A stretch of DNA of 53,086 nucleotides from Candidatus Giovannonibacteria bacterium RIFCSPHIGHO2_01_FULL_45_24 (GTDB lineage: Bacteria; Patescibacteriota; Minisyncoccia; UBA11713; 2-01-FULL-45-33): the NCBI GenBank assembly GCA_001778495.1, contig MFHE01000006.1, positions 1-53,086 on the forward strand, written 5' to 3'. Below, piece after piece: positions 14,416 to 16,717 of this stretch; positions within the stretch are counted from its first letter, which is position 1, and every line of letters begins with the position of its first letter. The notes beneath the pieces were generated by a model, which ran no database searches, had not been told where the DNA came from, and saw only the letters and a list, made by a program, of their open reading frames with translations. Both the position numbers and the translations under genes were made by a program.

Positions 14416-14691
14416 ATGAATTTGATAAAAAGTTTCTTTGAAAAGAAAAGGGCAAAAAAAATCGAACAGAAAGTTTTGAATCATTACAAAGAATTGGCTG
14501 GCGCATTTGGAAGTAGCGGCGAGATGTTAAATAAAGACAAAGAAGGTCGCGCAAGAGTTCGGGTTAAAGAGCAAGAGAAACTTGCACCCAAACTCGAACC
14601 CTTTTGGAATAGTCGGACAATACAAGCGGCGTTTATCGGTGGCGGTTTTGTTGTATTGGCTACCCTGCTTACGCTCTATTTATCAAATTAA
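14416..14691 (+). CDS. Hypothetical protein with C-terminal TM helix
   Basis: 91-aa ORF directly after the protease, hydrophobic C-terminus. Confidence 0.5.
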   Translation: MNLIKSFFEKKRAKKIEQKVLNHYKELAGAFGSSGEMLNKDKEGRARVRVKEQEKLAPKLEPFWNSRTIQAAFIGGGFVVLATLLTLYLSN

Positions 14692-14787
14692 CTTAGTCTA
14701 CGTCAAAAATCCGCTGGCCCGAGCGATGTGCGAGACGGAAATGAGATTTACGCAACTATTTTTCCGGCGGGCGGGCGGGGGAAAATG

Positions 14788-14807
14788 CTTGCCTGCCGGT
14801 AGGCAGG
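14788..14807. repeat. Short REP-like palindrome
   Basis: CTTGCCTGCCGGTAGGCAGG hairpin. Confidence 0.5.
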
Positions 14808-14845
14808 GAGGGATTTGAGTTATCCACAAAGCCCGCTAGCGTGGG

Positions 14846-14874
14846 TTGACAGTAATTTTTACTTTTGCTACACT
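14846..14874 (+). promoter_or_regulatory. Sigma70 promoter driving a short RNA upstream of the NYN gene
   Basis: TTGACA (14846)-17 nt-TACACT (14869), with extended -10 TG. Confidence 0.75.
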
Positions 14875-14879
14875 ATGAT

Positions 14880-14926
14880 TATTAACCACCCCCGCGCCGT
14901 CTTCGGATCGTGCGGGGTTTTGTTTT
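14880..14926 (+). ncRNA. Putative ~45-nt NYN-associated small RNA ending in an intrinsic terminator
   Basis: CCCCGCGC…TC-TTCG-GA…GTGCGGGG-TTTTGTTTT directly after the promoter. The NYN gene has its own TGcTAAAAT -10 at 14928-14936. Confidence 0.5.
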
Positions 14927-14942
14927 GTGCTAAAATAGCCTT

Positions 14943-15476
14943 ATGAATGAGAAAGAAAGAATTTTTATACTAATTGATGGGAATAATTTCTATCATCGTC
15001 TCAAGGAGTTAAAACTTAATAATTTATTGTCGTTTCATTATGAAAAACTGTCTGACTTTCTGACAGGCCAAAGGCTTTTAATATTCAAACATTATTATAT
15101 AGGAGCTATTCGCGAAGAGCAGGGCAACCCGAAAAGTAAAGAATTGATGCGCGGGCAAAGAAAATTGACTAGCATACTTCAAAGAGACGGCTGGATAGTT
15201 AAATTTGGTCATATGCTTAAAACCGATGGTTATCACGAAAAAGGGGTTGATGTTCAAATCGCCGTTGATTTACTGATTGGAGCTTACGAAAATCTTTATG
15301 ATACAGCAATTTTGGTCAGCTCCGATACCGATTTGATTCCCGCATTAGCTAAAGTGCGCTTTATGAAAAAGAAAGTTGAATATATGGGGTTTAGTCATAA
15401 ACCATCTTATGGCTTGATTACACATTCGGATATAAGAAGGCTTTTGACAAAAGAAGATATTAATCAATTTCTATGA
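14943..15476 (+). CDS. NYN-domain (LabA/DUF88, PIN-like) ribonuclease
   Basis: ILIDGNN, EKGVDVQIAVD, LVSSDTDLIP catalytic Asp motifs. Confidence 0.92.
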   Translation: MNEKERIFILIDGNNFYHRLKELKLNNLLSFHYEKLSDFLTGQRLLIFKHYYIGAIREEQGNPKSKELMRGQRKLTSILQRDGWIVKFGHMLKTDGYHEKGVDVQIAVDLLIGAYENLYDTAILVSSDTDLIPALAKVRFMKKKVEYMGFSHKPSYGLITHSDIRRLLTKEDINQFL

Positions 15477-16717
15477 TTCATGAAATTATAATTGTCGGAG
15501 GGGGGTTTGGGGGAGCGAGGGTGGCGAAATTGCTGGCGGAGGAACCGAATTTCCATATCACGCTGGTAGACAAAAGCCGATACCATACTTTTTATCCCAA
15601 TCTTTATGAAGTGGCTACTGCCTATTTGCCGGAAGCCTTCGGCCATCTGCCGATTGATTTTGTTGATTTGAAATCTTCCGCCATCTATCCCTTGGAGGAT
15701 ATTTTTTTGGACGACATAAATGTCTCCGTATTAGAAGACGAATTTTTGGGCGCGGATTTTAAAAAGCATTTTGTGAATTTGCGAAAAACAGGGAAACTGC
15801 GCTACGATTTTTTGGCGCTTGCGATGGGCAGCGAGACGAATTATTTCGGCATCCCCGGCATGGCGGAAAAGGCCCTGCCGCTTAAAAACTTTTTTGACGC
15901 GCTCGGGCTTCGGAACGCCATTGACGAGCTTTTTTTCAGAGCTCCGAAAAACCAGCTCATAAAAATCGTGATAGGCGGAGGAGGGTTCACCGGGTGCGAG
16001 CTGGCCGGAGAGCTTATGGGATATATGGATAAACTTTCCCGGATTCACGGCAGGCCGCGCTATTACGCGGAATGTTTGATTGTTGAGGCGGCGGAAACTC
16101 TTTTGGGGAGCGCAAGCCCATGGGTTCAGAAAAAAGCCAAAGCGCGGCTGGAAAAACTCGACGTGAAATTTATGTTCAAAAGCGCCATAAAAGAAATCCG
16201 GCAGAATGAAATCATTTTGGGTGTCGGTTCCAAAGTTCCATACGATTTGCTTATCTGGACGGCCGGAGTAAAAGCAAGCGAATCAGTCAAAACGCTGGAG
16301 AGCGTGAAATTAGAAAAGGCCTCGTGCGTGCCGGTTGATAAAAATTTGAGAATCGCGCCGCATGAAAACGTTTTCGGGGTGGGGGATATTACTTACTCTG
16401 TTGACGAAGCAACTGGCAAATCTCTTCCTATGACCGCCTCCGTCGCTTTAAGGGAAGCGAAATGCGTCGCGGAAAATATAAAAAGGATGGCTGCCAAAAA
16501 ACCGCTTCTCTACTACCGCGCGAGCCACCCCGGCTTTATAATCCCGCTTGGGGGCAGATACGCGCTTTTGGAGCTTTACGGCGTCCGTCTTTCTGGCCTT
16601 TTACCGTGGCTTTTAAAAGAATTTATCGCACTTAAGTATTGGGCCGGACTTTTGGGCTGGCGGAGGGCGTTTGGCTTGTGGAAAAAGGGACTTGAAATCC
16701 ACTCGTGGAATGACTAA
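15473..16717 (+). CDS. ndh: Type II NADH dehydrogenase-like FAD oxidoreductase
   Basis: IIIVGGGFGG, IGGGGFTGCELAGE, LIWTAGV, VFGVGD. Confidence 0.85.
   Translation: MIHEIIIVGGGFGGARVAKLLAEEPNFHITLVDKSRYHTFYPNLYEVATAYLPEAFGHLPIDFVDLKSSAIYPLEDIFLDDINVSVLEDEFLGADFKKHFVNLRKTGKLRYDFLALAMGSETNYFGIPGMAEKALPLKNFFDALGLRNAIDELFFRAPKNQLIKIVIGGGGFTGCELAGELMGYMDKLSRIHGRPRYYAECLIVEAAETLLGSASPWVQKKAKARLEKLDVKFMFKSAIKEIRQNEIILGVGSKVPYDLLIWTAGVKASESVKTLESVKLEKASCVPVDKNLRIAPHENVFGVGDITYSVDEATGKSLPMTASVALREAKCVAENIKRMAAKKPLLYYRASHPGFIIPLGGRYALLELYGVRLSGLLPWLLKEFIALKYWAGLLGWRRAFGLWKKGLEIHSWND

Follow-up and report, generated by a model that had tools for sequence, protein, structure and literature searches.

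Why should a small nuclease gene be preceded, in its own orientation, by a promoter, a hairpin-forming RNA of about 46 nt and a putative terminator? The question arises from contig C6 (MFHE01000006.1) of Candidatus Giovannonibacteria bacterium RIFCSPHIGHO2_01_FULL_45_24 (genome G000), whose 53,086 nt are the window analysed here and in which such a unit stands before the gene of a free-standing NYN-domain protein. An earlier note on this DNA had proposed a type III-like toxin-antitoxin family of NYN proteins and RNAs or, alternatively, an attenuated leader. We suspect that the unit and the gene form a horizontally mobile two-gene module, in which an NYN ribonuclease (RNase) is accompanied by a small RNA dedicated to it, and that its logic is most likely that of a type III-like toxin-antitoxin system. 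To this reading, which is drawn from comparisons of sequence, we give about an even chance.

The unit in the window is built as the note had described it, with TTGACA and TACACT 17 nt apart (promoter P1), a short RNA whose hairpin is capped by cUUCGg, a U tract, and a second -10 element, TGcTAAAAT, 6 nt before the ATG. P1 agrees with the consensus at 10 of 12 positions, carries a TG extension and is the best promoter-like site on the plus strand between 13500 and 17000. Transcript starts and ends are inferred from sequence throughout; the RNA is expected to begin at A14881, given a spacing of 6-7 nt after the -10 element. Its hairpin would consist of CCCCGCGC, a C/C mismatch, GUC, the UUCG loop, GAU and GUGCGGGG, and the 70-nt stretch that contains it has a predicted RNA folding energy of -20.7 kcal/mol (z -2.36). 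Together with the U tract, the hairpin has the predicted features of an intrinsic (Rho-independent) terminator. The second -10 element (P2) would give a leaderless NYN mRNA, and this fits a genome-wide signature: among 413 long open reading frames (ORFs) of G000, 42 have a -10-like hexamer exactly 6 nt upstream of the first start codon, each of the other spacings is found at about 0-11, and Shine-Dalgarno-like words show only a weak peak before start codons. Given the peak at 6 nt and the weak Shine-Dalgarno signal, many operons of this lineage appear to be expressed from mRNAs without a leader.

The note had proposed a survey of the flanks of NYN homologues. Our comparative sample comprised 301 genomes from 221 genera of one class, in which relatives are not independent; the order-level sample consists of the same 20 genomes as the family-level sample. 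With the window NYN protein as query and a threshold of E<=1e-15, homologues were found in 50 of the genomes and 47 of the genera. The 55 match rows represent 54 loci, two of which lie at contig starts, and 52 were assessable. R1, a covariance model of the tandem-type RNA, matches directly upstream and on the same strand at 45 of these 52. A divergent promoter-hairpin-U-tract unit was recognised at five more (G123, G180, G187, G154 and G165; the promoter in G180 is ambiguous), so that five of the 50 RNA-positive tandem loci rely on reading by eye. The unit is absent at the other two (G098 and G080), and both of these genes are interrupted by stop codons. Set A3 was compiled without loci L014, L016 and L039, and one step of the R1 locus survey without L014, L016, L017, L053 and the R1-negative loci.

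Promoter and start spacing were tallied at 46 R1-positive loci, including L013 from the family search. A promoter matching at least 9 of 12 consensus positions is located 5-8 nt before the RNA start at 38 of them; four score 8 of 12 and four have no promoter by script, one of which (L019) reads TTGACT-17-TATACT by eye. At 26 of the 46 loci an in-frame start is preceded at 5-8 nt by a -10-like hexamer, the distance being exactly 6 nt at 18. At about 10 of the 46, no more than about 10 nt separate the start codon from the end of the RNA, which leaves no room for P2, and in these loci the NYN gene would be expressed by terminator read-through only. Both architectures place a strong promoter and a terminator ahead of the nuclease gene. 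At L024 (G118) and L039 (G094), a gap of 110-120 nt separates the RNA unit from the start of the NYN gene, and in L024 an element with terminal inverted repeats has been inserted between the RNA and the NYN gene.

Across loci the presumed RNA is 44-56 nt long and has a common layout, with a 5' tail of 8-11 nt, a lower stem of 6-8 bp, a 1x1 mismatch or a bulged U, an apical stem of 3-5 bp under a UUCG, GNRA or CUUG-type cap, and a U tract at the end. The tail begins with AUUAAC, ACUAUGAUC or GAAAGUCG, depending on subtype. Within subtypes the tail and the lower stem are conserved in sequence across families and the apical stem covaries; as far as the sequences tell, this conservation exceeds the needs of a terminator. 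In alignment A5 (46 sequences, 11 pairs), which was fitted to the model and is thus biased towards structure, 84 double-change cells were counted against 36.0±5.7 in column shuffles, a number reached in 0 of 500 shuffles (kinship alone can also beat shuffles). The covariation score of the same alignment is 0.402, against 0.214 in shuffles, double changes occur in 9 of the 11 pairs, and every covariation measure drops when the partner is slid by one to three columns. Predictions made for each sequence with RNAfold, which are independent of the model, give the same hairpin. The UUCG, GNRA and CUUG caps, together with G-U pairs, point to an RNA rather than a DNA element. A small peptide encoded within the RNA was considered and rejected: an AUG is present at +4 in one subtype and in none of the others, the frame in G019 stops inside the hairpin, and a terminated RNA would be without a stop codon.

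The association was also examined in reverse. Over 151 genomes of the class, R1 gave 19 matches at E<=1e-4, 18 of which adjoin an NYN gene (17 directly upstream and one convergent); the match in G062 is accompanied by no detectable NYN gene. Five matches lie outside the training set of R1 (G094, G081, G123, G013 and G062), and the first four of them adjoin an NYN gene; the RNA of G013 is identical to a training sequence from G014. In G000 itself the two best matches are two NYN loci, the window unit with 42 bits and a second one with 37.7 bits, and each of the four weaker matches lacks both a promoter at this spacing and an NYN gene downstream (one comes after the RNase P RNA gene). Four genomes have two tandem-type copies, and in each of them the two RNAs belong to different subtypes.

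G000 (531 kb in 14 contigs, about 90% complete) encodes five NYN domains according to a genome-wide domain scan: the window gene, a close paralogue between rplC and rplD on contig C14, a 'core' NYN gene 3' of rpsO on the same contig, and two domains borne by inteins. A generic scan of all 531 kb for a promoter followed within 8-26 nt by a hairpin and U tract gave just 10 units, and since three of these are at NYN domains the combination seems to occur there more often than by chance. The C14 paralogue has the promoter TTGACT-17-TGcTATACT, a TTATCCACA box in reverse orientation, a gap of 13-14 nt to the hairpin, the hairpin CCUGCGCCUG-CUUCGG-CAGUGUGCAGG, then UUUUUCAUUUUG, an A+T-rich stretch and the ATG. 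Its stem differs from that of the window RNA, and pairing is kept by compensating changes. The insertion, which also holds a 106-aa membrane-like ORF, lies within an otherwise conserved ribosomal protein operon. One unit of like layout is found at a gene of another kind, on the minus strand of C10 (103044-103164), with TTGACG-17-TAGCAT, a hairpin, seven U and TGtTAAACT near the ATG; the N-terminus of the product, read by eye, presumably belongs to a signal peptide or secreted protein.

A second arrangement is provided by the inteins. A 2778-aa ORF of the window (30866-39202, plus strand) contains two Hint/intein-like insertions, each with an NYN domain, as well as a C-terminal Peptidase_S74 domain and an Ig-like domain. 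That all three NYN domains of the window are paired with a terminated unit, convergent in the inteins, as the note had held, is true at the level of sequence. The intein RNAs are matched neither by R1 nor by R2, a covariance model of the convergent-type RNA. The first intein NYN domain, used as query, finds a match in 276 of the 301 genomes, mostly a near-universal 'core' NYN protein of 170-200 aa; outside G000, none of the 301 shows this NYN type in a frame exceeding about 290 aa. Of the loci it matches best, 29 were retrieved. In each of the 11 closest free-standing relatives (33-39% identity), the opposite strand carries a small RNA with its own terminator and a near-consensus promoter, and the terminator abuts the NYN stop codon; nine of these units were found by the scanner and two, with a longer RNA, by eye. 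The remaining 18 loci, of the 'core' type, have no RNA unit (0/18). The convergent RNA is of a different family, consisting of AAUGUCAAACC, then UCUCCCCGC-UUCG-GCGGGGGGA and a U tract. R2 matches in six of the 151 genomes, four of them training loci; of the other two, the match in G050 is new and convergent to an NYN gene and that in G056 is an orphan. Given that a convergent RNA cannot be a leader, this arrangement argues against a purely cis-acting leader. The module has conserved parts, a covarying stem and a specific two-way association of RNA and NYN gene that occurs in two geometries.

The distribution of the module points to mobility. NYN identity does not track taxonomy, being 77-79% to proteins from other families and 40-49% to those of the own family, and among 36 loci flanking genes are common to three pairs only (one within a genus, L012/L014 and L025/L045). 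The RNA is retained next to decayed or truncated NYN genes at L015, L016, L018 and L061. Among the truncated or interrupted genes with an RNA unit are those of G008 (contig C5, two stop codons) and G081 (a 58-aa frame). In G013 (L016) and G014 (L015), which belong to different genera, an upstream region of about 330 nt with the RNA unit and an 81-aa NYN remnant is identical, which suggests recent transfer or a binning artefact. Orphan RNA genes with promoter and terminator intact and no NYN gene behind them occur at L053 (G123, 1501-1546) and L117 (G056, about 1501-1542), and one of the two abuts the 3' end of a different NYN module; G123 has an NYN gene with its own tandem unit and, in addition, a second, convergent RNA gene with no second NYN gene behind that RNA. 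Patchy spread, unshared neighbours, decayed copies and orphan RNAs make up a pattern typical of a selfish or accessory element. A phage origin was rejected, as 50,697 phage records yielded a single weak match. Four distant NYN relatives on viral contigs have no R1 match beside the NYN gene.

The window protein matches PF01936 with 75.4 bits (cut-off 24.2, E 8.7e-21), and NYN is the sole Pfam family that matches it at E<=0.01. Residues D12, E99, D103, D120, D128 and D130 are the same in all 30 homologues compared, and an alignment of 25 NYN sequences has 24 invariant columns. A search of PDB sequences with the window protein returned no match at E<=0.01. Its AlphaFold model (pLDDT 91) has as nearest solved folds 2QIP (TM 0.74/0.81) and the NYN domain of MARF1 (TM 0.63/0.73), and conserved acidic metal-binding residues combined with the PIN-like fold of the model make it a member of the NYN family. 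A role as a replacement for RNase P was ruled out, since G000 has an RNase P RNA of the bacterial kind (C2:1032-1519, 133.9 bits). In the accessible part of the PIN-superfamily classification, PF01936/COG1432 is classed as 'function unknown' and the word 'intein' does not occur (PMC5499597). In the accessible part of another report, the CRISPR-associated NYN protein of Bacteroides fragilis is described as an Mn2+-dependent, robust and sequence-nonspecific single-stranded RNA nuclease acting on small RNAs (10.1101/2024.04.08.588522). By analogy, a nonspecific nuclease of that kind would need restraint.

Beyond these observations, we infer where transcription starts and ends, and we suspect that the RNA binds the protein, that binding inhibits it and that the free protein is toxic. 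In this scenario P1, a near-consensus sigma-70 promoter often with a TTATCCACA box upstream, would make much of the ~46-nt RNA, whose own hairpin and U tract would terminate it, and the NYN protein would be weakly expressed, either leaderless from P2, which consists of a -10 element only, or by terminator read-through, or by both. The RNA would serve as the dedicated ligand of its cognate NYN protein, bound via the lower stem and the mismatch, with its single-stranded end sitting at the active site and keeping the nuclease inactive. Should synthesis of the short-lived RNA stop, the nuclease would be released and could cleave RNA of the cell or of an invader. Gene order, mobility and the pattern of decay fit this type III-like reading.

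Several points weigh against it. The reverse search is partly circular, as most of its matches came from the loci on which R1 was trained, and linked inheritance alone would also tie RNA subtype to NYN clade. In type III systems the antitoxin RNA consists of direct repeats of 34-36 nt, arranged in an array that the toxin processes. The RNA of the module is instead a single hairpin of ~46 nt with no such array; in the window, 14692-14942 holds no tandem repeat, and the sole array in 14500-15600 (14578-14601) lies inside the upstream ORF. The nuclease has an NYN (PIN-like) fold and not that of ToxN, CptN or TenpN. Further, the TGA stop codon of the NYN gene overlaps the start of the following oxidoreductase gene (ATGA at 15473-15476), and no -10-like hexamer precedes the start at 15473. 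Given this overlap and the lack of a -10 element of its own, the oxidoreductase gene would depend on the module's transcription and translation, and NYN would then be translated often enough to couple a housekeeping-type gene, which is odd for a tightly silenced toxin. The nearest defence relative, HEC-09 (E 2.3e-18, the best match of the window NYN in the defence library), gave no protection against the phages tested, according to the accessible part of its description (10.1101/2024.01.29.577857).

The note had recognised that its proposal would fail if the hairpin were merely the terminator of the upstream genes and TTGACA-TACACT were inactive; the hairpin does lie 3' of a same-strand ORF (14416-14691), and promoter-like matches are common nearby (8 found, 7.6 expected). 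However, the promoter, the spacing of 15-16 nt and the hairpin recur before NYN genes in unrelated neighbourhoods of dozens of genera, which contradicts this explanation, and we regard such a coincidence as extremely improbable. A function confined to insulation and dosage control in cis, with the terminator shielding a dosage-sensitive NYN gene from outside transcription, P1 and its leaky terminator setting a low fixed level and the RNA as a by-product, would be in keeping with the ~10 of 46 loci that seem to express NYN by read-through alone and with the C10 gene, which is not an NYN gene but is preceded by a promoter, a hairpin, a U tract and a second -10 element of similar kind. We nevertheless think it unlikely: insulation would require no more than a terminator, yet the convergent RNA genes have retained near-consensus promoters, the 5' tail, lower stem and mismatch are conserved beyond the needs of a terminator, orphan RNA genes persist without an NYN gene behind them, and the 8-9 nt that precede the window hairpin leave no room for an antiterminator or sensor. 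Those 8-9 nt, the lack of an Rfam family and the convergent RNAs elsewhere likewise set the unit apart from attenuators and riboswitches. As to the attenuated leader of the note, the dependence of about 10 tandem loci on read-through agrees with it, and the convergent RNAs of the second subfamily and of the inteins do not.

Two further explanations give the RNA a function other than restraint of the protein. It could be a positive cofactor or natural substrate of NYN (an RNA that confers specificity, a scaffold or a product of processing), or part of a homing-type mobility, given that NYN domains occupy the usual position of the homing endonuclease in inteins, that conserved neighbours such as rplC and rplD are separated by the module, and that cognate-specific RNA subtypes occur. 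A programmable guide would be hard to reconcile with a 5' tail that is conserved and not variable, and a free-standing homing endonuclease with insertion sites that differ in nearly every genome, neighbouring genes being common to only three pairs among the 36 loci; in the accessible parts of the literature examined, no DNA cleavage by PF01936 proteins was found. We consider this family of explanations rather improbable. Base pairing with the NYN mRNA, as in type I systems, is suggested by the convergent RNAs, which extend a few nucleotides into the 3' end of the NYN ORF, and by the intein RNAs, which are fully antisense to the host mRNA. At the tandem loci, in contrast, there was no cognate RNA-mRNA complementarity of the type I kind: when the 11-nt 5' tail was paired with the 600 nt downstream at 37 of the 46 loci with the RNA (long gaps, truncated genes and contig ends led to exclusion), the cognate mean was -7.62 and the non-cognate mean -7.69 kcal/mol, and cognate pairing had a median rank of 18 of 37. 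An antisense regulator is therefore very unlikely in our judgement.

A DnaA-box-like element recurs near the small-RNA promoters. The TTATCCACA box, with at most one mismatch and in either orientation, lies within ~50 nt 5' of the -35 element at 23 of 44 tandem loci (perfect in 13), and 0 of 44 control windows have such a box. In G000 it accompanies 5 of 106 strong promoter-like sites, where about 0.5 would be expected. It also precedes most of the convergent RNA promoters seen, and in the inteins it reads TTGTCCACA. The perfect sequence occurs 19 times in the 531 kb; other copies in the window lie at 30758, 1916(-), 39519(-) and 48626(-), some of them just 5' of promoters, and three tandem copies at C9:22106-22135 look like an origin.

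The features discussed are collected in Table 1. Around the module, the synteny of NYN and the oxidoreductase gene is common only to the same-genus genome G019. Further 3' lies an ORF that we take, from reading its translation, to be Rrf2-like, and the two ORFs after it presumably correspond to NifS and NifU. Over the window, Rfam at gathering scores yields only four tRNAs, and near the module (14650-15000) nothing approaches the threshold (best E 1.4). The intergenic region repeats within G000 as short G-rich and palindromic pieces only. A G-rich box, TTCCGGCGGGCGGG(GG)AAAATG, is found 5' of the module in the window (14762-14790), at the C14 paralogue and in G019 (L008). In G019 and G012 (L017), copies of GATTTCCGGCGGGC flank an element of ~130 nt with a long perfect hairpin that looks like a miniature inverted-repeat insertion. 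DNA of G000 is present in groundwater and soil metagenomes, according to a survey of sequencing runs that gave nine holders of DNA and none of RNA; this habitat would suit a candidate-phyla-radiation bacterium.

Table 1. Predicted features of the NYN-RNA module and related units in genome G000 (the window is contig C6)
Feature	Contig	Position	Strand	Description	Basis
DnaA-box-like 9-mer	C6	14820-14828	+	TTATCCACA, 17 nt 5' of the -35 element of P1	sequence
P1, putative small-RNA promoter	C6	14846-14874	+	TTGACA-17-TGcTACACT; -35 TTGACA 14846-14851, TG 14866-14867, -10 TACACT 14869-14874	sequence match
Small RNA gene	C6	14881-14926	+	~46 nt; 5' single strand AUUAACCAC	fold, R1 match, covariation
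Hairpin	C6	14890-14917	+	8 bp, C/C mismatch, 3 bp, UUCG loop; 15 nt after the -10 element	
U tract	C6	14918-14927	+	UUUUGUUUUG	sequence
P2, predicted extended -10 element	C6	14928-14936	+	TGcTAAAAT; TGc 14928-14930, TAAAAT 14931-14936; 6 nt before ATG 14943	
NYN nuclease gene	C6	14943-15476	+	177 aa	PF01936
NDH-2-like pyridine nucleotide-disulphide oxidoreductase gene	C6	15473-16717	+	context, outside the module	Pyr_redox_2, E 3.5e-37
Unit convergent with first intein NYN domain	C6	34727-34806	-	TTGACA-17-TAGGAT, two hairpins, U tract	by eye, not in scanner list
Unit convergent with second intein NYN domain	C6	36777-36851	-	TTGACA-16-TACAAT, CCUGCC-GCAA-GGCAGG hairpin, U tract	scanner
NYN paralogue with RNA unit (L005/L019)	C14	5733-6506		between rplC and rplD	sequence
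'Core' NYN gene (L001)	C14	71746-72207		3' of rpsO; without RNA unit	

The ORF that follows the 'core' NYN gene, its translation read by eye, we take to encode a DUF559-like endonuclease.

The module is compact, at about 700 bp. PF01936 NYN proteins are abundant in bacteria, and a partner RNA is the first concrete handle on the role of an accessory NYN subfamily. If the RNA restrains the nuclease, RNA-antitoxin systems would gain a toxin of new fold and an antitoxin reduced to a single hairpin, and their range would extend to uncultivated groundwater bacteria with reduced genomes. The module would also offer a testable explanation for intein nuclease domains that are unlike classical homing enzymes. 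A more ambitious proposal, which we put forward only tentatively and think somewhat doubtful, is that the module represents a new RNA-protein toxin-antitoxin or defence class of candidate-phyla-radiation bacteria, with an NYN toxin, a single-hairpin RNA antitoxin, tandem and convergent forms and possibly control through a DnaA box, and that it has been captured by inteins, where it replaces the homing endonuclease, so that these inteins would be kept by addiction and not by homing.

Among known proteins, the LabA-like NYN group (PF01936, COG1432; 2QIP is VPA0982) shares family, fold and acidic active-site residues with the module protein. However, the 'core' NYN genes of the class are without the RNA unit, unlike the module NYN, and the accessible part of the PIN-superfamily classification mentions no partner RNA (PMC5499597). 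The NYN protein of B. fragilis is likewise a small bacterial NYN protein, but, as the accessible part of its report has it, it is part of a type III CRISPR locus and serves to trim crRNA, whereas the module has no CRISPR context and a hairpin RNA with its own promoter (10.1101/2024.04.08.588522). HEC-09, a PADLOC candidate with an NYN domain, is defined by its embedding in Hma defence loci, and the accessible part of its description mentions no small RNA, unlike the module (10.1101/2024.01.29.577857). The papers listed in literature searches, with subscription journals and supplements outside the search and a prior description thus possible, contained no RNA partner of NYN genes, no NYN domains in inteins, and nothing that links the NYN domain to type III toxin-antitoxin systems or to Patescibacteria.

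In type III systems a promoter, an RNA, an intrinsic terminator and an endoribonuclease gene follow one another, and the RNA is expected to exceed the protein. The module differs from the known type III families (ToxIN, CptIN and TenpIN), besides the nature of its RNA and nuclease, in the second promoter for a leaderless mRNA that is predicted at many of its loci and in the convergent RNA gene of its sister subfamily, and it falls outside these families. At the level of sequence it nevertheless has the same order of promoter, RNA, terminator and nuclease, and it resembles them in being mobile, patchy in distribution and apparently cognate-specific where two copies reside in one genome.

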